A DNA stretch of 40,338 bases, taken from NCBI GenBank assembly GCA_020434205.1, contig JAGRBF010000357.1, positions 1 through 40,338 of the forward strand, read 5' to 3'. Below are positions 5,035-32,898 of the stretch, in pieces. The stretch is from Calditrichota bacterium. GTDB taxonomy: Bacteria; Calditrichota; Calditrichia; RBG-13-44-9; J075. Both the position numbers and the translations under genes were made by a program. Position 1 is the first letter of the stretch, and the number at the start of each line of letters is the position of its first letter. The notes beneath the pieces were generated by a model. The model saw only the letters and a program-made list of their open reading frames with translations. It was not told the DNA's origin and did not search any database.

Positions 5035-6828
5035 CTAATCCTGCTCCAGCTTGTCGTACCAATTGATCTTCAGGATGTAGCTGGTAATCGCCAGCACCAC
5101 CACCGCGTAAGCGGCATAGGCGTTTTCGCGGATCACCAGGTAAATCGGCAACGCCACCAGGCAGGTCTGCCAGACAATCCCCACCGCAACGTTGAACATA
5201 TCCCGACCAAAATTGCCGTTGGCGATAAAGTCCGGCTGCTCCGCCAGCACCGCCTGGTGGACCGGCCCCCAGAATCCCCAGGGGCGCACCTGCCGGTAGA
5301 AGGACTTCAGCACCGCCATATCTTCCGCGGGAGTCGCCAGGGTGGCGACAATGCAGCCGATCAGGGAAATCACCAAAATAATCGGGAATTGATAGATGGT
5401 AGGATGAATGTCCACCACCTGCGGCACGATCAGGGAAGCCAGAATCCCGGTGACCATGCCCCAGAAATAGCCGTGCCCGTTAAAGCGCCACCAGTACCAT
5501 TTCAGGAAATTGGCGGCGGTATAGCCCCCCCACAGGGCGTTGACGATCCACTGGGTCACCGAATCGATCGACTCCACCACAAACCCGAAGGCGATGCCCA
5601 CCACCACCACCGCGAAGGAGGTGAGGTAGCTCATGCGAACGTAGGTTTTGTCGTCGGCATCGGGGCGGATGTATCGTTTGTAAATATCATTGACCAGATA
5701 GGCAGGCGCGGCGTTGACGGTGGCGGCAAAGGTGGACATAAAGGCCGCCAGCAGTCCGGCCATCAACACGCCCAGCAACCCCACCGGCACGAAATTGCTC
5801 ATGGCGTAAGGTAAAATGAGCTCAAAATCGATGGCATTGCCCATTTCCGCCAACTCGCCCCGGAAGAACACCAGGGCCAGAACGGTGAGGCCGGCGATCA
5901 TCATATAGCGGGGGAAAAAAAGCACCACCGATACCAGCCCGCTCATCTTGGCGGCTTCCGCCGGGGATTTGGTGGCCAAAATGCGCTGCATGTCGTAATT
6001 GGGAGCGGGACCGGCCAGGCTCACCAGCATGCCTTTGAAAACCATCATCCCAAAGAAAAGGGCAAAGAGGGAGTAGCCGTCGTCGGCGATCCGGGTGTTC
6101 ACCGAATCGAGAATACCGCTCCAGTCCAGCCCCAGCTCCCAACCGAAGAAGATGTCCTTCCAGCCGGCCGGCAGCACCGCGTTCAGGGCTTCCGGACTTA
6201 CCTGGGTGATGGCGATGATGCCGATGGCGATGGAGGCCACCGTCATGATAACAAACTGGATCAATTCGGTGAGCACCACGCTGAACATCCCGCCTTTGAT
6301 CACATAGAGAGTGGTGATCCCCATAAAAATGAGGGCGTAGGTGTTGGCGGAAAGCTCCCAGGGCAGAAAGGATGCGGAGAATTTCCCGATCCCCTTGAAG
6401 CCGTAGGCCAGGAAGCCGATCACGCTGACGATCGCAAAAACGACGATGATGGCGTGGCTGAGGGTGGCGCCGCGACCGGTGCCGAAGCGGGTTTTCAGCC
6501 ATTCCGCCCCGGTCATAACGTTGGAGCGGCGCAGCCAGGCGGAGAGAAACACCATCAGAATCACCTGGTTAAAAACCGGCCACAGCCAGGGAATAAAGGC
6601 CCCCTTCAGCCCGTAGACAAAGGTGATGGAAACCAGCCACATGGTGCCGGTGATGTCGAACATCCCCGAGGCGTTGGACACCCCCAACACATACCAGGGA
6701 ATGGCGTTGCCCCCCAGAAAATAGGAATTGATATCCCGGGAAGCGCGGCGCGAGATGAGAAACCCGACCAAAACGGTGGCCAGCAGGTAAATCACAATGA
6801 TGCTGACGTCAATCCAATGCAGTTGCAT
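5035..6828 (-). CDS. Sodium:solute symporter family (SSS/SGLT-like) transporter
   Basis: 597 aa and multi-pass hydrophobic. The N-terminus IIVIYLLATVLVGFLISRRASRDINSYFLGGNAIPWYVLGVSNASGMFDITG is typical of SSS transporters. ATG start with AGGA upstream. Confidence 0.85.
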   Translation of the reverse strand: MQLHWIDVSIIVIYLLATVLVGFLISRRASRDINSYFLGGNAIPWYVLGVSNASGMFDITGTMWLVSITFVYGLKGAFIPWLWPVFNQVILMVFLSAWLRRSNVMTGAEWLKTRFGTGRGATLSHAIIVVFAIVSVIGFLAYGFKGIGKFSASFLPWELSANTYALIFMGITTLYVIKGGMFSVVLTELIQFVIMTVASIAIGIIAITQVSPEALNAVLPAGWKDIFFGWELGLDWSGILDSVNTRIADDGYSLFALFFGMMVFKGMLVSLAGPAPNYDMQRILATKSPAEAAKMSGLVSVVLFFPRYMMIAGLTVLALVFFRGELAEMGNAIDFELILPYAMSNFVPVGLLGVLMAGLLAAFMSTFAATVNAAPAYLVNDIYKRYIRPDADDKTYVRMSYLTSFAVVVVGIAFGFVVESIDSVTQWIVNALWGGYTAANFLKWYWWRFNGHGYFWGMVTGILASLIVPQVVDIHPTIYQFPIILVISLIGCIVATLATPAEDMAVLKSFYRQVRPWGFWGPVHQAVLAEQPDFIANGNFGRDMFNVAVGIVWQTCLVALPIYLVIRENAYAAYAVVVLAITSYILKINWYDKLEQD

Positions 6829-6856: not shown

Positions 6857-8284
<1,428 letters not shown>

Positions 8285-8308: not shown

Positions 8309-9331
8309 TCAGACCTGAGAATTTTCCTTCACAAAAGCGATCAGCTCATCCACCCGGGCAAAAGCCACCGCGGTGTAGGTATCGGCCGCCCCGTAATAGA
8401 TGGCGATCCGCCCGGTTTCGGCATCGGCCAGGGTGGCGCAGGGAAAGGCCACATTGGGCACAAATCCGGTGGTTTCGTAATCCGCCTCGGGGGTCAGGAT
8501 GTAATCCCGGGTGCGGTAAAGCACCTTGCTGGGATCGTCCAGATCCAGCAGGGCGGCGCCCATGCTATACACAAAACCGTTGCAGGTGGTGGTTACCCCG
8601 TGGTAGATCAGCAGCCAGCCTTCGGTGGTTTCGATGGGCACCGGACCGGCCCCGATTTTGGTGGATTCCCACCAGCTTTCCACCCCGCGGGACATCACAT
8701 GGCGGTGTTTGCCCCAGTAGACCAGATCCGGACTGTGGCTGAGGACGATATCGCCGAAGGGGGTATGGCCGCTGTCGCTGGGGCGGCTGAGCAGCACATA
8801 CAGACCGTTGATCTGCCGCGGAAAGAGCACCCCGTTGCGGTTAAAGGGGAAGGTGGGATTTTCCAGCTTCACAAAGGTTTTGAAATCGCGGGTCATCCCC
8901 ATTCCGATGGAGGGGCCGGGGAAATCGTCGCACCAGTTGATGTAATAGGCGTCGCCCAGTTTAAGCAGGCGGGGATCGTAGGCGTAGCCGTTTTTCACCG
9001 CCTCCCCGGCCTCGTTAACCCACTTGATGCGCTCGGGGCGGATGTCCCATTTCAGGGCATCCTCGCTGGTGCCGAAATACAGCTGGGGTTTGGCGTTTTT
9101 TTCGTCGGCCCGGAAAATGCCGACAAACCCGCCCTGGTAGGGAATAACCGCGCTGTTAAAGATGCGGGCCGCGGCCGGAACGGGATTCCACCCGATGATG
9201 GGATTGCCGCTGTAGCGCCACACCACCTGATGGCAGCCGGCCGGTTTGTCCTCCCAGGGGATGTTGGGAAGAGCGGTGCCGTTAACAATCCGGGCGCCGG
9301 TTTTTGGGGACTTGGTAGCATTGGTGCTCAT
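8309..9331 (-). CDS. GH130 beta-1,4-mannoside phosphorylase (mannosylglucose/mannooligosaccharide phosphorylase family)
   Basis: 340 aa with no signal peptide. Blocks FNRNGVLFPRQINGLYVLLSRPSD, KIGAGPVPIETTEGWLLIYHGV, MGAALLDLDDPSKV, GFVPNVAFPC and IYYGAADT match recalled GH130 sequences such as TM1225. Confidence 0.8.
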   Translation of the reverse strand: MSTNATKSPKTGARIVNGTALPNIPWEDKPAGCHQVVWRYSGNPIIGWNPVPAAARIFNSAVIPYQGGFVGIFRADEKNAKPQLYFGTSEDALKWDIRPERIKWVNEAGEAVKNGYAYDPRLLKLGDAYYINWCDDFPGPSIGMGMTRDFKTFVKLENPTFPFNRNGVLFPRQINGLYVLLSRPSDSGHTPFGDIVLSHSPDLVYWGKHRHVMSRGVESWWESTKIGAGPVPIETTEGWLLIYHGVTTTCNGFVYSMGAALLDLDDPSKVLYRTRDYILTPEADYETTGFVPNVAFPCATLADAETGRIAIYYGAADTYTAVAFARVDELIAFVKENSQV

Positions 9332-9377: not shown

Positions 9378-11702
9378 TTAAGGCGCCTTTTCCAGCATTT
9401 CAATACAGCGAATAAGGGCCCGGATGTTGTGGTAATTGACCTTCCAGTCGCGCGCTTTGGGAGCCCGGATTTGTCCGGGACTTTGGTCCAGTCCTTCTTC
9501 GTACCAGCCGCCGTTCACCTTGTCGATCAGGTAGCTGTCTATATAGCGCCATTCGCTCTCAAAAGCGGCCTGGTAGCGCGCTTCGTCCGGATAAAGGCGG
9601 CTCATCAGCAGAAAAGCATTGAGGGCTTCCGCCTGCACCCACCAGGTTTTCACCTCATCGATAATGGAAATGGGACCGTTTTCCTCGAGGTAATAGCCCT
9701 GGTAAAAGAGTCCCCCGTTTTTGAAATCCCACCCGTTGCCCAGGGCATGGTCCACCATTTTCCGGGCAACCTTTGCGGTGCGGGCATCATTTTCCATCCC
9801 CAGCACCGCGGCCGCCTCCAGCATCAGGAAGGCGGTCTCGACATCGTGCCCAAAGCTGACGTGATCGTAATATTTATTGGCCATACGTTCCGCTTCACTG
9901 GCCTGGCGGAAGGACACCGGGGTCCAGTCGCGCTCCAGAAAGAGGGTCAGATACCCTTTTTCGGTGGTGATGGTATCCCGGATGAGGGTCAGGATTTCCA
10001 GCAGGCGCTCGCGCAGGGTGGGGTCCGGCCATACCTGATACAGGGCGGTGTAGGCTTCCAGGATGTGAATGGAGGAATTCTGATCCTTCCAGGGCGCTTC
10101 CTTGCGGGGGTGGCCTTTGAGAAAGGACCAGGAGCCGTCCCGTTCCAGAATATCGATATAGCCGCCTTTTTCCGGATCCCGGCTGTGTTGGTCCAGCCAG
10201 GCGAAGGTTTTTTGGGCCAGTTCCAGGGCCTGCGGATCTTGGGAAACGGTGAAGTAAGCCGACAGGGCGTAAATGGCAAAGGCATTGCTGTAAGCGGTTT
10301 TGGCGCCACCGTCCCCGGCTGCTTCTCCCTTGCGGTTGCGCAGAAAATAAAAGCCGCCGTATTGGGCATCCCACATTTTGTCCCGCAAAAAGCGAAAACC
10401 GTGCGTGGCGATTTCCCGGTAGCGATCGTCCTGATAAAACAGGGCCAGTTGCGAGGCGCTCCACACGTGGCGGGTCTGGGAAACCAGCATCTTGTTCTGA
10501 GCGCCGGCGGGCTGCCAGCGATAGTCAAAATCGCTCAGAAAACCGCCGTCGCTTTTGTCCAGGGTGCGGGGATACCAGGCCCTGACCACGTATTGCTGCA
10601 GAGAATTTTTCAGCTCTGCGACCAAAGCCTTGCGGCCTGTTTCTGCGGCGGCTTCCGCGTTGTTCAGTTTCATCATTTTGTCCCGGAAAAAGGTGCCCTG
10701 GCGGGTCGGCTCAAAGGTCCAGTCGCGGATCAGTTGGGGCGACCATTGGGGATCGAACACCCAGGCGGTCCAGGAAATACCCTTGCGATCGAAAAAGCCG
10801 ATAATGGCCTCGCCGTAGCTTTCATCCCCGATCACCGGGATGTGCGCCCCGCGCTCCCCGCTGCTCATAAAGCCGAACTCCGTGGCCATCAGCGGATAAG
10901 TATCCGCCGCGAATCCCCAGCTTTCCTCCCATTTGTCCTCCCAGGGTTGGGAGCGCTTTTGGGGATAGGGATGGGTTACGTAGGCCACCCCCGGAAAATC
11001 GATAGGGTCGTAGCGCAGGAAGGACAGATCGTATCCCCAATTGAGCCCGGCTACCAGGGGAATGGCCTCCGGATTGATGGCGTAGATCATCGCGATCAGA
11101 TCTTCCATCAGGGTTTTGTGCTGGGCCCAGGTGTATTTCCCCAGTTTCCCCTCATATTGGGTGGGTTCGTTGAAAAGCTCGTAAAAGGCCACGGTGGGAT
11201 TACCGGCATAGCGGGTGGCGATGGTTTGCCAGAAGCGAAAGGTTTCGGTTTGGGTGGTGTTGTACATCGGCAGAAAAAACACCTCGGTGCGCAGATTGCC
11301 GATGGAATGCCAGTCAATAATCACGTGCATCCCAAGCTCTTCCGCCCAGGCCACTCCCTGGTCGATCAGCCGGAGGTAATCCTCCGGGCCGCGCTCCCGC
11401 CAGGCGCTGGGGTGTACCGGAAAACGCACCACGTTGGCGTGCCAGTCTTTGGCGGCCTGGAAGTAGGCCTTATTCCAGCGCTTTTCCTTTTCCAGCTTGT
11501 CCGGATCGGAGAAGGAGACCCCGCGGAACACCACCGGATTGCCCTGACTGTCGACAAATTGATTGCCCTCTACCTTAATCCGGGAGAGGGGGGCGCTTTT
11601 TTCCTGAGGCAAGACGCTTGTCGCCAGAGCGATGATCAGGAAAAGCGGCAAAAGATTTTTTATGGTGCTGAAGCAATTTGCGATCATGATCTTGTCCGTC
11701 AT
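9378..11702 (-). CDS. Bifunctional-looking exported protein: N-terminal GH5 domain fused to a C-terminal AGE-superfamily (cellobiose 2-epimerase / N-acylglucosamine 2-epimerase-like) domain
   Basis: Hydrophobic N-terminus LLPLFLIIALATSVLPQ. GH5 part (about aa 40-345, nt 10668-11585) with ELFNEPT and MATEFGF. AGE part (about aa 350-774, nt 9381-10655) with QNSSIHILEAY, SFGHDVETAFLMLEA and KTWWVQAEALNAF. The start overlaps the upstream stop as ATGA. Confidence 0.75.
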   Translation of the reverse strand: MTDKIMIANCFSTIKNLLPLFLIIALATSVLPQEKSAPLSRIKVEGNQFVDSQGNPVVFRGVSFSDPDKLEKEKRWNKAYFQAAKDWHANVVRFPVHPSAWRERGPEDYLRLIDQGVAWAEELGMHVIIDWHSIGNLRTEVFFLPMYNTTQTETFRFWQTIATRYAGNPTVAFYELFNEPTQYEGKLGKYTWAQHKTLMEDLIAMIYAINPEAIPLVAGLNWGYDLSFLRYDPIDFPGVAYVTHPYPQKRSQPWEDKWEESWGFAADTYPLMATEFGFMSSGERGAHIPVIGDESYGEAIIGFFDRKGISWTAWVFDPQWSPQLIRDWTFEPTRQGTFFRDKMMKLNNAEAAAETGRKALVAELKNSLQQYVVRAWYPRTLDKSDGGFLSDFDYRWQPAGAQNKMLVSQTRHVWSASQLALFYQDDRYREIATHGFRFLRDKMWDAQYGGFYFLRNRKGEAAGDGGAKTAYSNAFAIYALSAYFTVSQDPQALELAQKTFAWLDQHSRDPEKGGYIDILERDGSWSFLKGHPRKEAPWKDQNSSIHILEAYTALYQVWPDPTLRERLLEILTLIRDTITTEKGYLTLFLERDWTPVSFRQASEAERMANKYYDHVSFGHDVETAFLMLEAAAVLGMENDARTAKVARKMVDHALGNGWDFKNGGLFYQGYYLEENGPISIIDEVKTWWVQAEALNAFLLMSRLYPDEARYQAAFESEWRYIDSYLIDKVNGGWYEEGLDQSPGQIRAPKARDWKVNYHNIRALIRCIEMLEKAP

Positions 11703-13405
11703 TTTTGTCGCTTGATAATGCAGGCCAGGTCCCGTTCGAAGGAGGCTACCGCCAGGCGCAGTTGCCCGTCTTCACCCACCCGGACCTTTTCGGTTTTGCC
11801 CATAAAAGTACCGCTTTGCGGATCGTACCAGCGCACCTCATAGGCGCCGGGCAGCATCCCGGGAATCTCCTGGGTAAAGTCCCCCACCTGCTCGAGCTGA
11901 TGCCCTTCGCTGACCATCGACCACTGGTAGTTGAGGTTCTTCATCCACAAAGCGGCATCCGCTCCGGCGTAGATGGCCCGGATAAAGCCGAAGACCTGCT
12001 CGTCCGGTTTGGCCGCCAGGCGCCCCGGCACCAGGGTTTGGAATTTCAGGTGGGCCTGGCCGAAGTCCAGCTCCCCGGCAAAACGGGCCAGGTCCCCGAA
12101 CTTGTGCCACAGATCGAGCGGATCGATGTAGTTGTCCCACCACCAGCTCATGGGAATCACCGGGGTTTCGCTGAACCACCCCGCCCAGATGCTGTTGTGC
12201 AGGCCGATATGCTGGGAATCCGCTTTGGCGGTGCGATCGGCCCCCCGGTATTCCACCCCGAACTCGCCGATCACCATCGGTTTCTGATAAAAATCCACCG
12301 CCATTTCGTGAATATCCACCATGTGAGGGGCCATGTTGAGGGCGTTGTAAATATGAAACATGGCGTAGTCCATCGCGGGGGACCGGAAAGCGTCCGCCAC
12401 CTTTTCCGGATAATTGCGGGTGGCGCTGGTGGAAACCAGCCGTTGGTGCACATCCACCGACTTGATGAACTCGGCCATTTCGATATGCCAGCGGTTCATG
12501 GGAATAGCCTGCCCGGCCATCAGGTCCGCTTCGTTGTAGAACTCCCAGGTGCCCAGACTGGGGCTATGCCCAAAGCGGGAGACGATGTATTTGTATTTGC
12601 GTTTGAAATGTTCGATCGCCACCGCATTGGTAAACAGCTCTTTGCCGTCCGTGCAGGGGCCCCCGTTGATTTTATTGTAGGGACTGTCCAGCCAGCGGTT
12701 TTCCCGGAAAAAACCCTGTCCCTTCTGGGCAATACCGTGATAATCCAGGCACAGCATCACCGCGATGCCATATTGTTCCGCCAGTTCCAGAATCCCGTCC
12801 AGGCGGCGGGCGCTTTCCAGATTGTAAACCCCCAGCCCGGTTTCCTGCCATTCGAAGGAGAGGTTCCAGGGGCACATCCAGATCCGGGTGATATTGGCCC
12901 CGTTTTCCTTCATCTTGCGGAAGTAATGCTCGTAATTATCGGTCCAGCACACGTTCAGTCCGATGCCCCGAAAGGTTTCCCCGTTTTCGTAGGCAAAGGT
13001 GGCGTTATCATCGGCCAGCACCAGTCCGCCGCGCACCCCGGGAGCGCTGTTTTGAACCGGGATCGAGAAGGCAGCGCGTTTTTCGCCGTTTATAATGATG
13101 TTGAAGGCGTGCTCCCCGGCCTGTTTGGGGGCGAAGCGCGCCTCCCACTGCTCCCTTCCCGCCTCATTTTTGCCGTCGTAAAAGAAGGACAGGCTGAGGG
13201 TGGTCAGATCCGGCTGGCGAATTTCCAGCTCTATCTGATTGCTGCGCAGGTCGAAGGGATTTTCGAAACCCAGGTTTTCCTGAAAACGGATTACCAGCGT
13301 TTCAAATTTTTTGCCTTTGGCCGGTTTTTCCAGGGATTCAATGGCCCCGGAAACATTTCCCGCCAGGCAAACGCTCAATATCATCAACAAAAACACTCTG
13401 ATCAT
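11699..13405 (-). CDS. Secreted clan GH-A glycoside hydrolase (GH5-like, mannanase/cellulase type) with N-terminal Ig-like (DUF5060-like) domain
   Basis: Signal peptide MIRVFLLMILSVCLAGNVSG. Acid/base-like WEFYNEAD and nucleophile-like VIGEFGVEY. The ATG at 13405 follows a GAGGTG Shine-Dalgarno, and the track's GTG at 13411 lies inside that Shine-Dalgarno. Confidence 0.7.
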   Translation of the reverse strand: MIRVFLLMILSVCLAGNVSGAIESLEKPAKGKKFETLVIRFQENLGFENPFDLRSNQIELEIRQPDLTTLSLSFFYDGKNEAGREQWEARFAPKQAGEHAFNIIINGEKRAAFSIPVQNSAPGVRGGLVLADDNATFAYENGETFRGIGLNVCWTDNYEHYFRKMKENGANITRIWMCPWNLSFEWQETGLGVYNLESARRLDGILELAEQYGIAVMLCLDYHGIAQKGQGFFRENRWLDSPYNKINGGPCTDGKELFTNAVAIEHFKRKYKYIVSRFGHSPSLGTWEFYNEADLMAGQAIPMNRWHIEMAEFIKSVDVHQRLVSTSATRNYPEKVADAFRSPAMDYAMFHIYNALNMAPHMVDIHEMAVDFYQKPMVIGEFGVEYRGADRTAKADSQHIGLHNSIWAGWFSETPVIPMSWWWDNYIDPLDLWHKFGDLARFAGELDFGQAHLKFQTLVPGRLAAKPDEQVFGFIRAIYAGADAALWMKNLNYQWSMVSEGHQLEQVGDFTQEIPGMLPGAYEVRWYDPQSGTFMGKTEKVRVGEDGQLRLAVASFERDLACIIKRQK

Positions 13406-13453
13406 CGACACCTCAATTAGACAGGGTTACAGGGTTACATGGTTATCGCCTGC

Positions 13454-13509
13454 GGCGATGGGCGAATAGCGAGAAGCGAATAGCGAGAAGCGATCAGCGA
13501 TCAGCGATT
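13454..13509 (-). repeat. Tandem array of 8 units of 7 bp (plus strand RGCGANN, the complement of the NNTCGCY units in copy 1)
   Basis: Read directly: ggcgatg ggcgaat agcgaga agcgaat agcgaga agcgatc agcgatc agcgatt. Confidence 0.9.
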
Positions 13510-13532
13510 GTCTTTTTCTCGCTTTTCCAAGA

Positions 13533-13660
13533 GTCTTCCGGTCTTCCGGTCTTCCGGTCTTTTTGTCCTCTGGTCCTCTGGTCTATCAGTCTTCCGGTCT
13601 TCCGGTCTTCCGGTCTTTTTGTCCTCTGGTCTATCAGTCTTCCCGTCTTCGGATCTTCTT
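13533..13660 (-). repeat. Tandem array of 16 units of 8 bp (plus strand GTCTTCCG / GTCCTCTG / GTCTATCA / GTCTTTTT) with a higher-order repeat
   Basis: Read directly. Units 13533-13588 (7 units) and 13589-13636 (6 units) repeat the same order: 3 x GTCTTCCG, GTCTTTTT, 1-2 x GTCCTCTG, GTCTATCA. Confidence 0.95.
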
Positions 13661-13663
13661 CCC

Positions 13664-16165
13664 CTAATTCCCCTCCTGCAACAGGGCCTCCCCGGCCAGG
13701 GTCAGGAACATAAAATGGGTGGCGCCCCCGCCGATCACGTATTCGGTCTGATGCCAGAAGAACGGCCATTTTTTCAACTCCGGCAAATCCGGCCGCACCA
13801 ACCCCGTGCCGGAAACCACCCCGCCGGGGATGTAAGACCAGTCGGCCCGGTTGGTCCCGTAGGCGATCTCCACGGACTCCCCCCCAACCCCGGAAACAAA
13901 GGATGCGTGGTTATCCCCGGGATGGACGCCCAGCATAAAATTGAGCGCGTTAAAGACCGGCTCCCGGGAAAAGCGCTCCGGCCAGGCGCGGTGCAAATAA
14001 TAATACTGCATGGCAAAACGCTGGATGTCCCAGCCGGGGCCCCAAATGCGCGGGCGATAGGGCACCCCGTAAGGATTGCGATCCATTTCTTCCTGGAGCT
14101 TCCGGGCGGCATCTCCCGCCGCAGTGCTGATCTTTTCCCGAAAATCGGGGTTTTGCAGGCGCGGCCACACTCTGGCGATCAGCCAGCCCAGGCGCTCAAA
14201 CTGCCCCGCAATAATCTCGCCCTGTGCTTCGATGGCCTCCCGGTACTGCGCCTTGCCGGTGGTCAGGAGTAATTCGCAGGAGGCCTCGACCCGTGCCGCG
14301 GCAAATTCCGGGCGACCGGCATAGCTCTCCCAGATCTTTTCGGCGATGGCGAGGGTCTCCCGGGACAGGTCGCGATTGTAGTTCTGCATCACCCGCACCG
14401 CGGCAGCCAGGCAGGCGGCCACATAGAGCTCCCGGCCGGGATTCTCCTCGGTAAACACCCGCCGGTCGTCGTTGCGGCCGGAGCGTTGCCCCAGCATTTC
14501 TCCGGGCCGCAGGGTGCTGTCGAAATTCAGGTTATCGGTCATCACCGAGCCGTCGCCCAGCAGGACGTACTGGCGCAAATCCGGACAGATGATCCCGCGG
14601 TACAGGCGGCCCAGATTGCGATATCCGCCGACGATACTGAGCAGCCCGTGCTCGATCTGCTGCAAAATATCCAGTTTGCCATCCGGGCGGTGCAGTTCCA
14701 CCAGACGCGCCTGCTGGTCCACGGTGGTCTGATCGTAATGGACCCCGAATGCCTCGCGCATCAGGGCCAGCACCCGCACCGTTCCGGCCTGGGATTCCAC
14801 CCGCAGGTCGTAATCGCCGGCATCGTGCCATCCCCCGCGATCCAGCCCCGGGACATGCTGGCCGGATTCATAACGGGTCAGGGTGGAAGGCCCCTGGCGG
14901 TAGCCGTCGAAATGCAGGGTATCGGTATCCGCCATCAGGGCGTCGTCGAGATGACAGACCCCGTGCCAGACCCGGTAGCGGTCGTTGATGCGCATGTGGC
15001 ACATTTGCACCGGCAGGAAGTAGGCCAGAGTGGGCTGCCAGACGTGGCGCTCCAGAACCTGCGGGTCGATGCGAAAGGGATGGGATTGGATATTGCCGTA
15101 ACTGATCCGGTAAGTGCCCGGCTCTTCAACATTGGAGAAATCGAAGGTTTTGTACTGATAGCGCAGGAATTTTCCCCAGGAGGCCGGCTGGCGACGGATT
15201 ATGGCTTTAGCCTCTCCCGAGGCGGCAATACGCCACAGGGTCACCTCCGGCTCCCCTTCCTCCCTGGCATCGCATTCGATAACCGCCACCTTGCTCTGGC
15301 GGGGATGATATCCCAATTGAGAAAGCTGGATCTGAGGCGGGTAACGCCAGCCGGGAACGGTATGGGCGGAAATACGCCAGCGAATCGCCCCTTCTGTGGC
15401 GCCGGAGGGAATGGGGCCGCGCACGATAAACCAGCCGTTGTTGTGGTGAGCTCTGCCGTCCAGCAACTCCAGCTGACCGCTTTGGGCGGTGATGGTGAGG
15501 CGTTGCAGGGGGTTTTCCGGGGCCACGGTCAGGCTTTTTCCGGTGGCGAGGGGGGCCACTTCCCAGGTATCCGGATCCTGGCCCGGCACCATCGGCCCGT
15601 TCAACTGGCGCGGAAAAAGGCCGCCCCGCTGGTCCATCTGATAGGTTTTGCCGAAGAGGTCGGTGGGAAAAAGCTCCAGATTAAAACCGACCTTCCCGAT
15701 CCACCCTTCCGGTAGCGGCTGGTCGAGGTCTACGGAAATCAGGATATCCGGACCTTCGGCTTTCAGGGAGATGCGGTAGGAAAAGTTTAAGTCGGGATAA
15801 GTGATGGGGTTAAATCCCTTGCGATCCAGATCCGGATTGGGATAGCTGCCGGGCACGGTAATGCGGTTGTTATCCCGGTCTATCTGCGGCTCGCCGATTT
15901 TCGGCACCGGCTGCCACTGGCCGGGAGCGGGCTCCAGGCGCACGTCCCCGTTGGCGGCCACCCGGGATCCGTGCTGGATAAGGGTGATCCCGCCCTGGTG
16001 CCCCTCGGGATAAATATCCTGAAAGGCCATGACGTTCAGGCCCGGCATCTCGAAATAACCCAGGTCGTTCAGGCGCAGCCCGTCCTGCCCTAACAAACAG
16101 GAAATTTGTAACAGCAGGGCCAGGAGAACCGCTATCCCGGACACCCTTTTTTCACTTCGGATCAT
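13664..16165 (-). CDS. Secreted GH9-family glycoside hydrolase with N-terminal Ig-like domain
   Basis: 833 aa with signal peptide VSGIAVLLALLLQISCLLGQ. GH9 signature DRGGWHDAGDYDLRV and a C-terminal QTEYVIGGGA resembling the catalytic-Glu block. The size fits Ig-like plus (alpha/alpha)6 GH9 enzymes. Confidence 0.7.
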   Translation of the reverse strand: MIRSEKRVSGIAVLLALLLQISCLLGQDGLRLNDLGYFEMPGLNVMAFQDIYPEGHQGGITLIQHGSRVAANGDVRLEPAPGQWQPVPKIGEPQIDRDNNRITVPGSYPNPDLDRKGFNPITYPDLNFSYRISLKAEGPDILISVDLDQPLPEGWIGKVGFNLELFPTDLFGKTYQMDQRGGLFPRQLNGPMVPGQDPDTWEVAPLATGKSLTVAPENPLQRLTITAQSGQLELLDGRAHHNNGWFIVRGPIPSGATEGAIRWRISAHTVPGWRYPPQIQLSQLGYHPRQSKVAVIECDAREEGEPEVTLWRIAASGEAKAIIRRQPASWGKFLRYQYKTFDFSNVEEPGTYRISYGNIQSHPFRIDPQVLERHVWQPTLAYFLPVQMCHMRINDRYRVWHGVCHLDDALMADTDTLHFDGYRQGPSTLTRYESGQHVPGLDRGGWHDAGDYDLRVESQAGTVRVLALMREAFGVHYDQTTVDQQARLVELHRPDGKLDILQQIEHGLLSIVGGYRNLGRLYRGIICPDLRQYVLLGDGSVMTDNLNFDSTLRPGEMLGQRSGRNDDRRVFTEENPGRELYVAACLAAAVRVMQNYNRDLSRETLAIAEKIWESYAGRPEFAAARVEASCELLLTTGKAQYREAIEAQGEIIAGQFERLGWLIARVWPRLQNPDFREKISTAAGDAARKLQEEMDRNPYGVPYRPRIWGPGWDIQRFAMQYYYLHRAWPERFSREPVFNALNFMLGVHPGDNHASFVSGVGGESVEIAYGTNRADWSYIPGGVVSGTGLVRPDLPELKKWPFFWHQTEYVIGGGATHFMFLTLAGEALLQEGN

Positions 16166-17346: not shown

Positions 17347-19206
17347 TCACTTAACATACAGCATTTTGCCGGTAGCAGTGGCGCCCTCGCGCCGGGCGGT
17401 CTGCAATTGATAAAGGTATACGCCGGAACTTAGCAGTTTCGATGCGTCCCGCGCCGGATCCCAGGCCAGGGTTTGCTCCCCGCGTCCGTCAAAAAAGCGG
17501 GAGCTTTGATGCACCAACTGCCCGGAAAGGGCGTAGACTTTGAGGCTCACCTCTCCCGCTCTGGCCAGGTGGAAACGAATTACGGTGCCCCCGTTAAAGG
17601 GATTGGGATAATTGCCGATCAGCTCCAGGGACTGGGCGAGTTGCGGTGTTTCCACCGTTCCGATGCCGGTGACCATACCTTCTCCTTCGCGAATCACAAT
17701 GTGTTGGTTGGTCGCCAGATTGGAGACCCGGTCCACCCCGCCGCCCGGCCAGTGCACCGTAAGCAGATCGATGCGGTTGGCGGTGCCCAGACCGAGATGC
17801 ACCGGCAGCAGATTTTGCCCGAAAAACTGAGCGCCGTAATTGAGGCGGTGATACGTTTTTCCGTTGGCCTGCACCTCCACCCGCGCTCCCAGACCGTCGC
17901 GATTGGCGGCGGTTCCCTCCAGGGCCACCGAGAGCCAACTCCCACTCCCGGCGTTGTTCTGATACAGTGCAGGCTGATCGGTGAAATTGGAGATCAGGAT
18001 ATCCTCGTCCCCGTCGCGATCATAGTCGAAGGCAACCACCCCGCGGGCTTCCCGGGTATCGTCCATTCCCACTGCGGCGGCGACATTGTTGAACACCGCG
18101 CTGCCCCCGCTCAGATCGTTGCGAAAGAGGTAGTTGGGAAAAACCACCTGATAATAGCCGGTAACCACCATCAGGTCCTGATCCCCGTCATTTTCCAGGT
18201 CAAAAAAGGTGGTGCCCCAGCCCCAGCCGGCCAGATCCACCCCGCTGGTGGCGGCCTGATCCAGAAACAAGCCCTGACCGGTGTTCATGAACAGGGGGTT
18301 CACTTCGTTGCCGGTGCCCGTTTCGGTAATATTGGTGAGATAGATGTCGAAGTAGCCGTTGCCGTCGCAATCGGTTACCGCCACACCCATGCCGTGATAG
18401 GGGTTTTCCAGGCCGTAGTCCGCGGTTTTTTCCTGAAAGGTTTTGTCCCCATTATTGAGGTAAAACTTGTTGTCCCCGAAATCGTTGGCCAGATACAGGT
18501 CGATATGCCCGTCGTTATTGGCGTCGATGGGAATGGTGGTCCAGGTTAAGCCCGGGTCCGCCAGGCCGGAAGCGCCCGAAACATCGGCAAAAGTGCCGTT
18601 GCCCAGGTTCTCGTACAGGTAGTTGGCGGTATTGGGCCCGGAGCGGTAATCCGCCCAAACCCCCACATAGAGGTCCAGGTCTCCGTCCAGATCGTAGTCG
18701 AACCACAGGGCGCTGGAGCTGAGTTGGCTTTCGCTGCCGGCCACCCCGGCGGTGGCGGTTACCTCGGTAAAGCTGCCGTCTCCGTTGTTGTGAAAGAGCT
18801 GATTAAAGCCCAGGTTGGTCAGATAGAGGTCCGGAAAACCGTCGTTGTCGTAATCCCCCCAGGAGGCCCCCAGCTTATAGCCCATGGAACTGCTGACCAG
18901 CGGATTGTCGCGCCCGCGCAGGGCTTCGCTGGTCCCGATTCGGGCAAAGGTGCCGTCGCCGTTATTGCGATAGAGGCGATTCCAGGTATTCTGATCCTGA
19001 GCGGAATAAGCGGCTTTGGCCACAAAATAAATATCAAAGTCCCCATCCCGGTCATAATCCGCCACAGCAACCCCGTTGGTGGCGGTCATCTGTTGCAGAC
19101 CGGCGTTCTGGGTGCGCAGCACAAAATTTTGGGCGGCAGCCGATTTGCTCTGCAAGGCCAGGGCAGTTAGGATCAGGATAAAAAGGGGGCAAACCAAACG
19201 GTTCAT
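17347..19206 (-). CDS. FG-GAP/VCBS-repeat beta-propeller protein with ASPIC/UnbV domain (CRTAC1 family) and T9SS C-terminal sorting domain
   Basis: Seven D-x-D-x-D-G-x-x-D repeats, for example DYDRDGDFDIY, DYDNDGFPDLY and DYDLDGDLDLY. UnbV-like GARVEVQANGKTYHR...HLGLG. T9SS C-terminal domain at 17350-17622 (NYPNPFNGGT...GVYLYQLQ...MLYVK). The start is set at MNRLVCPLFILILTALA; the track ORF extends to 19269. Confidence 0.8.
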   Translation of the reverse strand: MNRLVCPLFILILTALALQSKSAAAQNFVLRTQNAGLQQMTATNGVAVADYDRDGDFDIYFVAKAAYSAQDQNTWNRLYRNNGDGTFARIGTSEALRGRDNPLVSSSMGYKLGASWGDYDNDGFPDLYLTNLGFNQLFHNNGDGSFTEVTATAGVAGSESQLSSSALWFDYDLDGDLDLYVGVWADYRSGPNTANYLYENLGNGTFADVSGASGLADPGLTWTTIPIDANNDGHIDLYLANDFGDNKFYLNNGDKTFQEKTADYGLENPYHGMGVAVTDCDGNGYFDIYLTNITETGTGNEVNPLFMNTGQGLFLDQAATSGVDLAGWGWGTTFFDLENDGDQDLMVVTGYYQVVFPNYLFRNDLSGGSAVFNNVAAAVGMDDTREARGVVAFDYDRDGDEDILISNFTDQPALYQNNAGSGSWLSVALEGTAANRDGLGARVEVQANGKTYHRLNYGAQFFGQNLLPVHLGLGTANRIDLLTVHWPGGGVDRVSNLATNQHIVIREGEGMVTGIGTVETPQLAQSLELIGNYPNPFNGGTVIRFHLARAGEVSLKVYALSGQLVHQSSRFFDGRGEQTLAWDPARDASKLLSSGVYLYQLQTARREGATATGKMLYVK

Positions 19207-19308
19207 GAACGTTTTCCGGTTTTGTGAAAAAGCAGACGGACCGGACATCCGGCCCGTCTGATCAGCCACTCAATAACCCAAAGGAAATTGGTGATCAAGT
19301 CGGCGTGT

Positions 19309-21846
19309 TTACTTCACCAGCATCATCTTGCGGGATCTGATGAAATCGCCGGCTTTAAGACGATAGAAATAGACACCGGAAGCGACCTTGCGGCCGTCGT
19401 CATCCCGTCCGTCCCACTGAATCTTATAGAGGCCGGCAACCTGATTGTGGTTTTTCACCAGGGTGCGCACCTTTTGGCCCAGAAGGTTATAGACCTGCAG
19501 GGATACTTCCGCCCGCTTGCCCAGGCTGTAGGTAATGTGGGTGCTGGGGTTGAAGGGGTTGGGATAGTTTTGAGCCAGCTCAAAACCGTCGATATGGGTA
19601 ACGTTATCCCCGATACCGGAGACCACCCGTTCCAGAACCAGCTGGGCGAAGTCGATATTCACATTATTGGCGCCGCCGATGGTGACGTTATGGGTGCCGG
19701 CGGTAAGGCTGAAATTGCCGGTCAGGATGTCGCCGCCGGCAGAGTCGCCAACCGCGCTGGTCAGTTCCACACCGGAGAGTACCGTGCTGCCGTCTACGGC
19801 AATGTCCACGAACTGGGTGCCGGCAGGAGCCTGATAGAAAACGGTCAGGCGGTAGGTGCCGTTTTGCGGTGCTTCCAGAGGCATGGTTACGCTGCCGCCG
19901 TTCAGGGCCACGGACTTAAAGCCGCGCGGGGTCCAGGGAGCGCCTTCGCCGATCAGTTCCACAATGGCGTAGTCGGTGATGTCCGGGGTGGTCAGGGTGT
20001 GCAGCACGGTGCTGGTACCCTGGGTCAGAACCTCAAAACCGCTGAAATCCTGATATCCCCAGGAGGGCTCGACGCGGATGGTGTTGGTCCCGGCCGGCAG
20101 GTTGAGCGCGTCCCCGCCTTCGATCAGGTTGCCCTGCTCGATCAGGTAGGTCTGCCAATCGGTAGACAGGTCGCTCCAGTAATATTCGCCGTAGTTGGCG
20201 TCGTTGCGGATGTTGGTACCGTTAACGATGATGCGCTGTCCGCGCTGAACGTCATTGCTGCGGGTTTCCACGGTCAGGTCCACCGTGGTTGCGGCAGCCA
20301 TGTCGAACGTCCACTCAAAATACCCGCCGCCCTGCATTTGGACATAGGCAAAACCGCTGAAGGTTTCCACGGTTGCGCCGCCGGCCAGGGTACCGTTTTC
20401 GGCATCTTCGTCATCCACCGGGATGTATTCGATGATTTCCCCGGGAATGGCTTCGATATCGGCGATGTATTGGGCTTTGTTTTGTTCGAAGACTTCTTTT
20501 TCGGTGGGGAACCAGTTCAGGTCGCCCAGGGGCAGTCCGTCCGTAGAGCCGCTTTGCAGCGCGGTACTGGTATAGGTGAAGTCTTCCGGCAAGGGCCAGC
20601 TGGGGCATACGTTACAGTCGCCGCCGCCGGGCAGTTGGGGAATTTCATACATATAGTCGGTGGCCGGGGTAATACCGGCGCGCAGATCCATGATATTGGA
20701 GATCATCAGGTTGATTTGCGCGGAGGAGAAGGTGGTATTGAGACCCGGATCGGTAAAGGAGGTGTCTTCAAACACCATCTGATCGTAGGTATTGATGTAA
20801 TCGCGCTTGGTGACGTCGTTCATCAAGGGCTGGGCGCGAATGGAGTCCGCGTAATAAGCGGCGAACAGAGGATCGCGGAAGGCATTGTTATGCGAGAAGG
20901 CGATGCGGCGGCCTTCTTCCGGTCCGTAGATGGAAGGCAGGTCGGCAATGGAGAACAGACCGGAGGCCCAAACCTCGGGATCGCGGTTGGGATTGCTGAG
21001 GTCGGCATTGCCTTCACCGTGCCAGAAACCGTTGACGATCAGGTTGTTGGTGAAGTAGGCTTCCCGCCACCAGCCGCCGGTGTTGACGCTGCGGCCCAGG
21101 TTGATGATGGTGTTGTGGTTGAAGCGGGTGTAGGAAGCCGCGCCGCCTTCCACCTGCAGGGCGGTCATCCCCACGTTGAAGAACGTACAGTTTTCCACGA
21201 TCACGGTGTCCTGATCGATCCACACCGAGGTGCCGCGCCCTTCCCACTGCTGGGTGCTGGGGCGACCAACAACGTTGCGGAAAACGCAGTCGTTGAATTT
21301 AATGGTGTTGCCCGAGTTGGTGAAAGCGACAAAGGAAAAGTTGGTGCGCTCGAAAATGACGTTCTCGAAGGTGTAATTGCGACCGGAACCGGACACTTCG
21401 ATGGGCTGGTAATACGTTTGCACCCCGTTTTCGTCGCACCCGATCAGATACAGGTTTTTCAGGGTAACGTCCCCATTACCGGTGAGCATTTTACCGTCCA
21501 CGTCCCCGTTGTCGTTGCTGACCATCTGGATGGTGGGCGGATTGCCGAACACCGGATCCCCGGGATCCCCTTTTTGCCCCACGATGCGCAGGTGGAAGCC
21601 ATTGGCTTCGATGCGGTCGTTGTTCCAGTAGAAACCGCCCCGCTCCAGCTTGTAAACGCGGTTGGCGGGATGGGTGCCGTCCGGCAGGGTGTCGCCGACG
21701 ATGGTATTGCGCAGGCTGTTTTCCAGGGGATTAATCCCGTCCAGCGACCAGGGCACATCCAGGGTGTCCAGCTGGGCGAACAGCGAACCGCCTGCCACCA
21801 TTCCCAGAACCAGGGCAGACCAAATTAGTTTGTACAGATGCTTCAT
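19309..21846 (-). CDS. Secreted right-handed beta-helix protein with two CBM-like beta-sandwich domains and T9SS C-terminal sorting domain (function unknown; glycan-binding or lyase/hydrolase candidate)
   Basis: Signal peptide LIWSALVLGMVAGGSLFAQ. PbH1-like repeats FENVIFERTNF, KFNDCVFRNV, VIVENCTFFNV, FNHNTIINLG and FTNNLIVNGF. CBM6/35-like segments ENGTLAGGATVETFSGFAYVQ...IRVEPSWGY and GTYRLTVFYQAPAG. T9SS C-terminal domain at 19312-19578 (NYPNPFNPST...GVYFYRLKAG...MMLVK). AGGAGG Shine-Dalgarno. Confidence 0.6.
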   Translation of the reverse strand: MKHLYKLIWSALVLGMVAGGSLFAQLDTLDVPWSLDGINPLENSLRNTIVGDTLPDGTHPANRVYKLERGGFYWNNDRIEANGFHLRIVGQKGDPGDPVFGNPPTIQMVSNDNGDVDGKMLTGNGDVTLKNLYLIGCDENGVQTYYQPIEVSGSGRNYTFENVIFERTNFSFVAFTNSGNTIKFNDCVFRNVVGRPSTQQWEGRGTSVWIDQDTVIVENCTFFNVGMTALQVEGGAASYTRFNHNTIINLGRSVNTGGWWREAYFTNNLIVNGFWHGEGNADLSNPNRDPEVWASGLFSIADLPSIYGPEEGRRIAFSHNNAFRDPLFAAYYADSIRAQPLMNDVTKRDYINTYDQMVFEDTSFTDPGLNTTFSSAQINLMISNIMDLRAGITPATDYMYEIPQLPGGGDCNVCPSWPLPEDFTYTSTALQSGSTDGLPLGDLNWFPTEKEVFEQNKAQYIADIEAIPGEIIEYIPVDDEDAENGTLAGGATVETFSGFAYVQMQGGGYFEWTFDMAAATTVDLTVETRSNDVQRGQRIIVNGTNIRNDANYGEYYWSDLSTDWQTYLIEQGNLIEGGDALNLPAGTNTIRVEPSWGYQDFSGFEVLTQGTSTVLHTLTTPDITDYAIVELIGEGAPWTPRGFKSVALNGGSVTMPLEAPQNGTYRLTVFYQAPAGTQFVDIAVDGSTVLSGVELTSAVGDSAGGDILTGNFSLTAGTHNVTIGGANNVNIDFAQLVLERVVSGIGDNVTHIDGFELAQNYPNPFNPSTHITYSLGKRAEVSLQVYNLLGQKVRTLVKNHNQVAGLYKIQWDGRDDDGRKVASGVYFYRLKAGDFIRSRKMMLVK

Positions 21847-24898: not shown

Positions 24899-25146
24899 CA
24901 ACAATTCTCCTGTGACGTGTTGACGAGCTTTGAGAATCCGCGGGTTCGGAGGTATATCTCCGTGCTTCCTGCGGAGGGTTCCCTGGTTGCCCGAAAAAAG
25001 GTTATCCGGCAACGAGGGGATAAGGGAACTGGCGGTATCAGAAAAATTTTGATTGTCGATGCGATATGAGGGGCTGGTGGTGGCGACCGGCGCCGGGGAG
25101 GATCGTGCCCACGATTTCCCGCTGTGAAAACAGGCCCCTGCGGCTC

Positions 25147-25164
25147 TTCGAAAACGTTTTCGAA
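25147..25164. promoter_or_regulatory. Perfect 18-bp palindrome TTCGAAAACGTTTTCGAA, candidate LacI-family operator
   Basis: Verified self-complementary. The central AAACGTTT core with a CG centre matches the general LacI/GalR operator pattern. It lies in the divergent region between the TonB-dependent receptor and the LacI gene. Confidence 0.6.
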
Positions 25165-25167
25165 AAA

Positions 25168-25196
25168 AAGATAGATTGAGCAGGCAAATAAAGCAA
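25168..25196 (-). promoter_or_regulatory. Weak sigma70-like promoter candidate (TTGCTT-N17-TATCTT) placing the palindrome over the predicted transcription start
   Basis: Minus-strand read: TTGCTT (25196-25191), a 17-nt spacer, TATCTT (25173-25168), then 3 nt later the 18-bp palindrome. The hexamers match the consensus only 3/6 and 4/6. Confidence 0.25.
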
Positions 25197-25367
25197 TAGC
25201 ATTTTTTGATTTTTTTCTGAAAAAGACTCTGGAAGGAAAGCTGTAACGGCAAAAATTTTGTGAATTCTTTTATATAAAATCAAAACAAACAGTATTTTAA
25301 AAGACTTACCGCCAAACACCTTTCGGGAGAACCAAGCCTCCCTGGGCGTGAACGATGCTCCCGGACC

Positions 25368-25567: not shown

Positions 25568-26626
25568 ATGAAAAACCCGCTGACGATTAAGGATATTGCC
25601 CGGCTTGCCAATGTCTCCCAATCCACCGTCTCCAAGGCGCTCAACAACCGCCACGACGTCAGCCCCAAAACCAAAGAACGTATTCTGGAAATTGTCAGTC
25701 AGCACAATTTTATCCCGGATGCCTCCGGCAAGGCGCTCAAAAATCGCTATACCAACAACATCGGGGTTATTTTTCGCAAGGACGACAACCCCCTGCGCAA
25801 CCCCTTCTTTTCCCGGGTGCTGGAAGGCATCGAGGCGGAAATCGCCTTCAACGAATACAACCTGATCCTCTACCTGATGCCGGATCACAAAAAACCCGGC
25901 CTGCCCAAAATGGTTCAGCAGCGCCAGGTGGACGGCATTATCCTGGTGGGCACCCAGAGTCCCGATTTTGTGGACACCCTGCGCGAAGCAGGAATTCCCA
26001 CGGTGCTCATCGATCCGCGCGCCCATATCCCCAGCCGCCCCCAGGTGCTCATCGACAACGAAAACGGGGCCTTTCTGGCCACCCGCCACCTCATCGAACA
26101 CGGCCACCGCAAGATCGGCTTTATCGCCGGGGAACTCAGCATCCCCAGCTTCCAGCAGCGCCTGGACGGATACAAAAAAGCCCTCACCTATTACGGGATT
26201 CCCATAACCAAATCGCTGATCAAATGCGGCGGATATGAGGAAGGCTACCGCTTTACCCGCGATTTGTTACAGGACGCGGTAAACCGGCCCACTGCCATCT
26301 TTGCGGCCTACGACATCAACGCCATCCACGGCTATCGGGCCATTTACGAAGCCAACCTGCGCATTCCGGACGATATCAGCTTCGTGGGTTTCGACGATAT
26401 CGACCTGGCGCGCATGGCCAGTCCCCCGCTCACCACCATCCGGGTCTACAAGGAGGAACTGGGATCGGTGGCGGTGCGCAACCTGCGGTCCATTCTCCTG
26501 GGGGAAACCCCGCCCTCCACCACCTCCATCATCCCGGTAAAACTGGTGGAGCGGGATTCGGTTCGCAGCGTGGAAGTCCAGCAGGAATCCGCCCCGGCCA
26601 GGCAGGCCAGCGCCAAAAAAATCTAG
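25568..26626 (+). CDS. LacI/GalR-family transcriptional regulator
   Basis: N-terminal helix-turn-helix TIKDIARLANVSQSTVSKALNN, followed by a periplasmic-binding-protein-like sugar-binding core (VDGIILVG, HRKIGFIAG, SFVGFDD). Confidence 0.9.
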   Translation: MKNPLTIKDIARLANVSQSTVSKALNNRHDVSPKTKERILEIVSQHNFIPDASGKALKNRYTNNIGVIFRKDDNPLRNPFFSRVLEGIEAEIAFNEYNLILYLMPDHKKPGLPKMVQQRQVDGIILVGTQSPDFVDTLREAGIPTVLIDPRAHIPSRPQVLIDNENGAFLATRHLIEHGHRKIGFIAGELSIPSFQQRLDGYKKALTYYGIPITKSLIKCGGYEEGYRFTRDLLQDAVNRPTAIFAAYDINAIHGYRAIYEANLRIPDDISFVGFDDIDLARMASPPLTTIRVYKEELGSVAVRNLRSILLGETPPSTTSIIPVKLVERDSVRSVEVQQESAPARQASAKKI

Positions 26627-32885: not shown

Positions 32886-32898
32886 GGGCCTTCCCCTT

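Follow-up and report, generated by a model that had tools for sequence, protein, structure and literature searches.

A GH5-AGE fusion protein in a Calditrichota operon as a candidate exported hydrolase-epimerase

Must a beta-glycan fragment be imported before a bacterium can epimerise its reducing end? The question is raised by a gene on contig JAGRBF010000357.1 of a Calditrichota bacterium (GenBank assembly GCA_020434205.1), of which we analysed positions 1 to 40,338 of the forward strand, hereafter called the window. The gene, at 9378-11702 on the minus strand, encodes in one uninterrupted open reading frame (ORF) of 774 aa, and in this order, a predicted Sec-type signal peptide, a glycoside hydrolase family 5 (GH5) domain, a linker of 8-10 residues and a complete AGE-superfamily domain. 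An earlier note on this DNA had described the same ORF as a GH5 domain fused to a cellobiose-2-epimerase-like domain and as probably exported, and the ORF is present as described. In the textbook mannan route, epimerisation follows import, and the characterised AGE-superfamily sugar 2-epimerases are, to our knowledge, treated as cytoplasmic. From comparison of sequences, domains and gene neighbourhoods we favour, with a probability of roughly 0.6 for the model as a whole, the reading that the fusion is a Sec-exported two-domain enzyme of a TonB-receptor/type IX secretion system (T9SS) glucomannan operon, cutting glucomannan or beta-glucan and epimerising the new reducing ends.

The profile scan proposed in the earlier note finds both domains: Pfam places a GH5 "Cellulase" match (PF00150, E 6e-34, profile positions 1-269 of 272) at aa 50-317 and a GlcNAc_2-epim (AGE) match at aa 387-737, and each of the motifs quoted there is found (ELFNEPT and MATEFGF in the GH5 half; SIHILEA, FGHDVETAF and WWVQAEA in the AGE half). 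The GH5 half has an acid/base, E179 (in FNEPT, N178-T181; nt 11166-11168), and a nucleophile, E275 (in ATEFG; nt 10878-10880), whose motifs, NEP and TE(F/I)G, align with those of the structures 8bn7, 4hty and 5a8m. Its nearest structures are the endo-glucanase CjCel5C of Cellvibrio japonicus (8bn7, E 7e-121) and a metagenome cellulase (Cel5A, 4hty, E 7e-119), and it also matches SdGluc5_26A of Saccharophagus degradans (5a8m, E 2e-103). These GH5_26 beta-glucanases (SdGluc5_26A being represented by 5a8m-5a95) resemble the fusion across the whole catalytic domain, with E values of 1e-103 to 1e-121, and are 43-51% identical to it in Foldseek alignments, for which the AlphaFold2 (AF2) model is poor in part of the GH5 domain. 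The poor part of this full-length model is aa 217-332, only three GH5 rows having been supplied, and the geometry between the domains is not interpretable. None of the PDB matches of the GH5 half is a mannanase. A mannanase-like hydrolase, expected by analogy with the Bacteroides fragilis and Ruminococcus albus route, is thus not borne out, and by similarity the GH5 half appears closest to a beta-glucanase of GH5_26 type. Unlike the fusion, none of the solved GH5_26 beta-glucanases has an AGE module. Related GH5 modules are joined to GH10, GH9, GH18, GDSL esterase, CBM11 and T9SS domains and never to AGE, and no AGE-like C-terminal partner was found among the GH5_26-like modules scanned. Some of these modules occur in odd combinations, with a nonribosomal peptide synthetase condensation domain (P0164), GH18 (P0139), GH10 (P0145) or GH9 (P0147).

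The AGE half keeps the complete residue set of an epimerase. Its leading sequence matches in the PDB are the Runella enzyme 8h1k (E 3e-55) and the cellobiose 2-epimerases 5zig (1e-44) and RmCE (3wkf, 2e-42). In the alignment with RmCE, residues R66, Y124, N196, H200, H259 and E262 correspond to R411, Y471, N542, H546, H619 and E622 of the fusion, and W321, W322, E326, W385, Y389 and H390 correspond to W687, W688, E692, W753, Y757 and H758. The alignment of catalytic histidines that the earlier note had called for therefore matches all three (RmCE H200, H259 and H390) as well as E262 and R66, and its description of a full AGE domain with the catalytic blocks holds. The histidines lie at nt 10065-10067 (H546, in SIHILEA), 9846-9848 (H619, in FGHDVETAF together with E622) and 9429-9431 (H758), and WWVQAEA supplies W687, W688 and E692. 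Also kept are W688 and W753, the counterparts of RmCE W322 and W385, which form the aromatic platform for the non-reducing sugar in the RmCE complex structures, and Y471 and N542, the counterparts of RmCE Y124 and N196. AF2 models the AGE half as an (alpha/alpha)6 barrel with a predicted local distance difference test score (pLDDT) above 90. In Foldseek comparisons the target-normalised TM-score (TMt) is 0.89 to RmCE, which ranks first, 0.86-0.88 to the Runella 2-epimerase, and 0.86-0.91 across the solved members.

What kind of epimerase this half represents is less simple. The cellobiose 2-epimerases (EC 5.1.3.11) have in common with the fusion the complete set of catalytic and core residues, an association with mannan-degrading genes and a GH130, and RmCE (3wkf/3wkg/9l8i) and the R. 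albus enzyme (3vw5) have the same (alpha/alpha)6 fold (TMt 0.89-0.90). They differ in having about 31% identity to the AGE half (25-31% among the solved enzymes) and in being without its 15-residue insertion (aa 600-614, directly before the FGHD motif), which is missing in RmCE, is kept throughout an exported long-loop clade described below, and is modelled by AF2 as an ordered short helix at aa 603-609 with pLDDT above 90. The AGE half scores 169 bits with the NCBIfam cellobiose epimerase model NF041848 (celb_epim_EpiA), below the equivalog cut-off of 800. By MAFFT alignment it shares 32% identity with the Runella enzyme and 31% with RmCE, the identity between these two being 31% as well. Because the three identities are nearly equal, the AGE half forms a third branch, and we suggest that it is a new branch of the AGE superfamily, of neither cellobiose 2-epimerase nor Runella mannose-epimerase type.

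The alternative that survives best, which we nonetheless consider unlikely, is that the exported AGE domain acts on free mannose or glucose, like the Runella enzyme, or mainly as an aldose-ketose isomerase of mannose isomerase/YihS type. The best PDB sequence match is indeed Runella slithyformis Runsl_4512, a glucose/mannose 2-epimerase (8h1k-8h1n; E 3e-55 for 8h1k/8h1l, as against 1e-44 and weaker for cellobiose 2-epimerases). It has the same catalytic set and also an enlarged loop before the catalytic histidine, and the weak NCBIfam matches of the AGE half are to mannose isomerase and AGE models. However, the near-equal identities and the first rank of RmCE in Foldseek speak against this alternative, as do the details of the pocket. 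At RmCE positions 196 and 321 the Runella enzyme has D187 and F335, whereas the clade has N542 and W687, the cellobiose 2-epimerase pattern. The Runella loop carries D254, the residue mutated in 8h1m/8h1n, but the insertion in the fusion is 8 residues shorter, is unrelated in sequence and offers no equivalent of D254. Fusions of AGE domains to endo-acting glycanases and CBM35, listed below, also point to polymeric or oligomeric substrates.

If the fusion epimerises newly made reducing ends, where would it do so? Its N-terminus, MTDKIMIANCFSTIK-NLLPLFLIIALA-TSV, read by eye and with hydropathy, has a charged, basic n-region (K4, K15), a 12-residue h-region at aa 16-27 and A25-L26-A27 at its end, so that the hydrophobic export or anchor N-terminus claimed in the earlier note is present with signal-like n-, h- and c-regions. 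In the AF2 model aa 3-28 form a lone helix of low pLDDT. Signal peptides are carried by the upstream enzymes of the operon, and GH130 and GH1 have none. The TonB-dependent receptor and the T9SS cargo proteins in the operon imply a diderm cell, in which the protein is probably exported to the periplasm or beyond.

The export of the AGE domain does not appear to depend on the fusion. Hundreds of stand-alone relatives of the AGE half have 430-490 aa, about 40-60 residues more than the cytoplasmic epimerases. A signal-like N-terminal segment is found in 106 of 116 stand-alone relatives (about 91%; 49-64% identity), with an A/G/S-Cys lipobox in 74, another Cys in 13 and a signal peptidase I (SPase I) type in 19. 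Most of the ten exceptions start right at the mature domain, P0059 and P0088 have a hydrophobic segment followed by Cys that falls under the signal threshold used, and the DNA upstream of P0021 encodes an in-frame lipoprotein signal, so that its start has been miscalled. The characterised cellobiose 2-epimerases are without the N-terminal extension, while members of the clade have either a signal peptide or, in the fusion, an exported GH5 in front of the AGE domain; no signal segment is seen in the alignment for the Runella chain. The NCBIfam EpiA, AGE and mannose isomerase profiles (405, 384 and 401 positions) leave no room for a signal peptide. Thus the suggestion that the fusion itself had moved epimerisation out of the cytoplasm is not upheld, since the stand-alone clade already carries signal peptides.

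It is improbable, in our judgement, that the N-terminus is not a working export signal and that the fusion acts in the cytoplasm on imported oligosaccharides, as classical cellobiose 2-epimerases do. The signal call was made by eye, the n-region is long, the start codon is ambiguous and the downstream partners GH130 and GH1 are cytoplasmic, all of which would suit a cytoplasmic protein. Against this, the stand-alone orthologues of both halves begin with clear signal peptides (the GH5 orthologue in the syntenic locus L003 among them), GH5_26-like modules elsewhere sit in secreted multi-modular enzymes with a T9SS sorting domain or CBM11, all upstream operon genes encode signal peptides, and the polymeric substrate of an endo-glucanase is absent from the cytoplasm.

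Accessory modules are common in secreted glycanases, and the AGE fold might in principle serve the glucanase as a non-catalytic carbohydrate-binding or scaffolding (alpha/alpha)6 module. The earlier note had likewise allowed for a recruited non-epimerase, a possibility that we regard as decidedly improbable. None of the 12 catalytic and core binding residues varies in any of the 116 relatives compared (49-64% identity), nearly all of the independent fusions keep them, and most members of the clade stand alone and are not appendages.

We also asked whether the gene is genuine. The earlier note had suspected a join at about 10655-10668, and this place coincides with the domain junction (nt 10635-10670). 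The same intact ORF is found in the window and in L001, L002, L089 and L090. L001 and L002, from two ENA assemblies, have one and two mismatches relative to the window across the entire length, and L090 has one synonymous substitution and a second that gives K307N. The junction is also read through in P0270 and P0271, two contig-end fragments from NCBI. Six or more contigs, drawn from at least four samples and different assemblies and including a variant allele, carry the junction in-frame (the samples include those of ERZ27309228, ERZ27309230, ERZ28655685 and ERZ28655088, the latter two labelled SAMN08389218 and SAMN08389217), so the fusion is not an assembly artefact, and we conclude that it is a genuine single polypeptide. 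The GC content is continuous along the gene, and consensus scans for an internal promoter or terminator that would split it gave nothing above shuffle expectation. The shorter members of its own cluster (336-414 aa), considered as unfused versions, were rejected as such, being contig-end fragments of which two cross the junction. The idea that a mis-assembly or a sequencing frameshift merged two genes, which could draw on the restriction of the fusion to one population and on the want of a second example in two large protein searches, is barely credible in view of the separate assemblies and samples that share the in-frame junction (one allele with additional single-nucleotide differences), the clean join, at which the GH5 fold ends and the first helix of the AGE fold follows, and a GH9-AGE fusion elsewhere with the same junction style.

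The start of the gene is less certain than its body. The first ATG (11702-11700) overlaps the TGA of the upstream ORF (11699-13411) as ATGA, as the earlier note had seen, and a second in-frame ATG five codons downstream (11687, M6) is where other gene callers begin the ORF, as in P0001 with 769 aa. Because the exact start is ambiguous between these two, the overlap stands, and strict translational coupling to the upstream GH5-like gene is plausible but not settled.

How common is this architecture? Among 5.8 billion clusters searched by a word index, the only one with GH5+AGE is the fusion's own, and an exhaustive phmmer search of 1.84 billion representatives found no other protein that matches both halves; the sole match in two stretches that both fall in GH5, P0067, is a tandem of two GH5 domains. 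The novelty claimed for the architecture agrees with both searches, and GH5_26-AGE appears to be unique to one population. Its origin can be read in part from a syntenic relative. In L003 an AGE gene (62% identity, with a signal peptide) is followed directly by a separate GH5 gene of 345 aa (68-72% identity, with its own signal peptide), and the pair is flanked by orthologues of the LacI regulator, the TonB-dependent receptor, the CBM35 and FG-GAP proteins, GH130, GH1 and the SSF symporter. Since the order is AGE then GH5 in L003 and GH5 then AGE in the window, the fusion needed a rearrangement and not a simple read-through. Stand-alone GH5_26 proteins end in ...KMMQLNPKPVK or ...KMMDLNPSGRR, followed by the stop codon. 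The junction of the fusion links this natural GH5 C-terminus to a point about 10 residues past the AGE lipobox Cys, where the mature part of stand-alone AGE proteins starts, and the AGE signal peptide and lipobox have been lost. Such an anatomy is what joining two genes end to head would leave, and in the relative these genes are separate neighbours; we think that the fusion probably arose in this way.

Next we consider the company that the exported AGE clade keeps. The clade is spread over Bacteroidota, Ignavibacteriota and Melioribacter, Gemmatimonadota and KSB1-like metagenome-assembled genomes (MAGs). Cultured bacteria with the stand-alone gene include Melioribacter, Algoriphagus yeomjeoni, Fibrella musci, Parafilimonas terrae and Mucilaginibacter kameinonensis. 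In a scan of one genome per GTDB species, at least 587 relatives were confirmed among the 600 pattern matches listed, and among these listed matches identity reaches at most 61%. AGE domains of this clade or of a short-loop sister group have been coupled several times to secreted mannan or glucomannan modules in uncharacterised proteins, with partners that differ from the GH5_26 of the fusion (Table 1). These proteins bear no curated name beyond automatic "cellobiose/mannobiose epimerase" labels. The multi-domain forms checked keep the catalytic residues, except for an E-to-Q change in P0166, the truncated P0238 and the divergent, signal-less P0175.

Around the stand-alone AGE gene, the carbohydrate-active enzyme (CAZyme) neighbours, where present, are GH9 with CelD_N, GH26, GH5, CE2 and GH130. 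Orthologues of the window GH9 (47-63% identity) are found in 13 of 80 genome loci, among them L011, L063, L066, L080 and L081, and are the most frequent CAZyme neighbour; in nine of 12 listed loci, and in L007 as well, no more than about 500 nt separate the end of the GH9 from the AGE gene downstream. This neighbour looks like an uncharacterised GH9 subgroup that is functionally tied to the epimerase. GH26 occurs in 11 AGE loci and GH130 in 10, four of these clearly GH130_2. Of the 107 neighbouring ORFs taken from about 30 of the genome loci, a minority are GH9, GH26, GH5, CE2 or GH130, and the majority are housekeeping genes unrelated to these. A universal glucomannan context for the clade was considered and rejected; the link is recurrent, not universal.

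The short-loop sister group has a loop like that of cellobiose 2-epimerases, is 34-39% identical, and includes many proteins with signal peptides, so that exported epimerase-like proteins are not confined to the long-loop clade. Members include P0179, P0183, P0187, P0190, P0197, P0199, P0203, P0229, P0232 and others, and some have several domains (CBM35-AGE in P0195, BNR/sortilin-AGE in P0192, AGE-metallophosphatase-CBM9 in P0229). We tried the exported short-loop relatives as EpiA equivalogs and rejected them, as they score 108-198 bits against the cut-off of 800 bits, which none of the exported AGE relatives scored reaches.

The fusion gene sits in a long minus-strand operon that runs from a TonB-dependent receptor to a sodium:solute symporter (Table 1). 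The gene just downstream of the fusion encodes a GH130 with no hydrophobic N-terminus, as the earlier note had stated, and its subfamily is informative. It matches TM1225 (1vkd, E 6e-157) and the R. albus beta-1,4-mannooligosaccharide phosphorylase (5ayd, E 6e-127) far better than the 4-O-beta-mannosyl-glucose phosphorylases (3was, E 3e-20; 5ay9, E 1e-19). By this comparison the adjacent GH130 is of GH130_2, mannooligosaccharide-phosphorylase type and not a GH130_1 mannosylglucose phosphorylase. In B. fragilis and R. albus, mannan is used through a mannanase, then a cytoplasmic cellobiose 2-epimerase, then a GH130_1 mannosylglucose phosphorylase, the classical GH130 partner of these epimerases. 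That route likewise brings together an epimerase-like gene, a GH130 and a sugar symporter in a mannan-related operon, but the fusion locus has an exported epimerase-like domain, a GH130_2, a glucanase-type hydrolase and a GH1 for the last step. Because its GH130 is of GH130_2 type, the route that the earlier note had pictured as relocated, from mannobiose to mannosyl-glucose and on to phosphorolysis, is not what the locus encodes, and, differing in both GH130 subfamily and location, the route of B. fragilis and R. albus serves poorly as a model for it. Syntenic loci (KSB1 MAGs and a Logan assembly) add a GH26 and a melibiase-family alpha-galactosidase (GH27-like), with CE2 in the Logan locus only; taken together, the locus and these syntenic genes amount to a (galacto)glucomannan toolkit. 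Judged from synteny with the KSB1 loci, the lineage is probably related to that candidate division.

Putting these observations together, we propose that the GH5 domain, a retaining endo-beta-1,4-glucanase of GH5_26 type, would cleave glucomannan or beta-glucan at glucosyl residues, and that the AGE domain would then interconvert glucose and mannose at the new reducing ends by cofactor-free His/His proton transfer, as in cellobiose 2-epimerases. This epimerisation would be located outside the cytoplasm, and the products would enter through the SSF symporter to be degraded by the cytoplasmic GH130_2 phosphorylase and GH1. As GH130_2 and GH1 act from the non-reducing end, the epimerised end may matter instead to recognition by a transporter or receptor or to other periplasmic enzymes, for example the conserved GH9.

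Several observations count against this proposal. The same non-reducing-end action of GH130_2 and GH1 gives no obvious need for an epimerised reducing end and no obvious benefit from making one. The signal peptide of the fusion was judged by eye and hydropathy only, and the GH5_26 assignment was made by similarity to solved structures. The conserved 15-residue insertion beside the catalytic histidine is missing from the cellobiose 2-epimerases, so that the substrate (oligosaccharide or monosaccharide), and even the reaction (epimerisation or aldose-ketose isomerisation), could differ. Finally, the stand-alone gene has no CAZyme neighbour in many Bacteroidota genomes.

A wider reading is that bacteria of the FCB group (Bacteroidota, Ignavibacteriota, KSB1-like) and Gemmatimonadota have widespread extracytoplasmic, cofactor-independent aldose 2-epimerases, as lipoproteins, periplasmic proteins and T9SS cargo, which edit the reducing ends of glucomannan, mannan and beta-glucan before uptake, a step that would have mattered enough for them to be joined, repeatedly and independently, to GH9, GH26, GH5_26, CE2 and CBM35. 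We hold this tentatively, at somewhat less than even odds. Were it true, the window protein would count as a natural hydrolase-epimerase and the breakdown of beta-mannan would include an extracellular step not recognised before, with extracytoplasmic 2-epimerases likely to surprise a CAZyme specialist. Should the exported clade prove active, many bacteria of soils, sediments and the sea would carry out part of their glucomannan processing extracellularly and at the reducing end, polysaccharide utilisation loci would be read differently, hundreds of genes labelled "AGE family epimerase/isomerase" would receive a function, and the conserved pairing with an uncharacterised GH9 would be explained. 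The fusion is valuable here as a Rosetta-stone link: through it, defined substrates (glucomannan, mixed-linkage glucan) can be used to test directly what the stand-alone clade does. A secreted, cofactor-free hydrolase-epimerase could also serve in the one-pot making of oligosaccharides of epilactose or glucosyl-mannose type. Judged from databases, the exported AGE clade is apparently unstudied, and an earlier description may have been published.

Table 1. Features of the fusion and its operon in the window, and multi-domain AGE proteins found elsewhere
Feature	Position (nt) or protein	Strand	Remarks
TonB-dependent receptor	21929-25252	-	operon head, with the three genes that follow
CBM35/beta-helix T9SS protein	19309-21846	-	
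FG-GAP/ASPIC T9SS protein	17347-19269	-	
GH5, 370 aa	16219-17331	-	nearest TM1752 and a bifunctional mannanase/glucanase
Divergent GH9 with CelD_N Ig-like domain, signal peptide	13664-16165	-	Pfam
DUF5060 + GH5-like, signal peptide	11699-13411	-	PDB 9gmj/9gpc, E 1e-53; stop overlaps first ATG of the fusion
GH5-AGE fusion	9378-11702	-	
Predicted Sec signal peptide, aa 1-27	11622-11702	-	n-region, 12-residue h-region, A-L-A; alternative start M6 at nt 11687
GH5 catalytic domain, GH5_26-like beta-glucanase type, aa 36-350	10653-11597	-	PF00150 and PDB matches
Fusion junction and short linker, aa 345-356	10635-10670	-	KLNN joined to AEAAAETG (KLNNAEAAAETG); in-frame in at least six contigs
AGE-superfamily epimerase-like domain, aa 358-772	9387-10631	-	PF07221, E 2e-42 (aa 387-737), and PDB matches
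Clade-specific 15-residue insertion, aa 600-614 (QASEAERMANKYYDH)	9861-9905	-	directly before FGHD catalytic motif
GH130, GH130_2 type, no hydrophobic N-terminus or signal peptide (cytoplasmic)	8309-9331	-	Pfam, E 3e-77
GH1, cytoplasmic, operon tail	6857-8239	-	Pfam
Sodium:solute symporter (SSF), operon tail	5035-6828	-	
LacI-family regulator, divergently transcribed	25568-26626	+	also kept at syntenic L003, L006
AGE-GH26	P0090, P0119, P0125, L021, L043		
CBM35-GH26-AGE	P0238		
AGE-CE2	P0124		
CBM35-AGE	P0195		
AGE-T9SS C-terminal sorting domain	P0166		
GH9-AGE, 1237 aa	L054, 7556-11266		Chitinophagaceae MAG; own signal peptide, junction style like that of the fusion

Other features of the window were noted in passing. 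The GH9 with CelD_N is extremely distant from all solved GH9 structures (best E 7e-7), and the DUF5060 + GH5-like protein, which resembles the solved but functionally unnamed 9gmj/9gpc, has no more than weak similarity to GH5 mannanases. Between the stop of the former and the start of the latter, a gap of 252 nt is filled by about 16 tandem copies of an 8-mer (GTCTTCCG, plus strand) at 13532-13658 and by shorter 7/14-mer arrays, as at 13421-13508. Beyond the LacI gene, within 26743-28896 (+), 30340-31602 (-), 31641-36600 (-) and 36527-38575 (-), are further candidate glycan genes, for a T9SS protein (weak GH5 match, Big_7, CBM35), a GFO/IDH/MocA oxidoreductase and a melibiase-like protein; a weak GHL13 match and two large ORFs (414 and 558 aa) without a Pfam match also lie there. 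At the contig end a DDE transposase fragment occupies 44-829 on the minus strand, and the GC content of positions 1-1000 is 0.45, compared with about 0.58 elsewhere.

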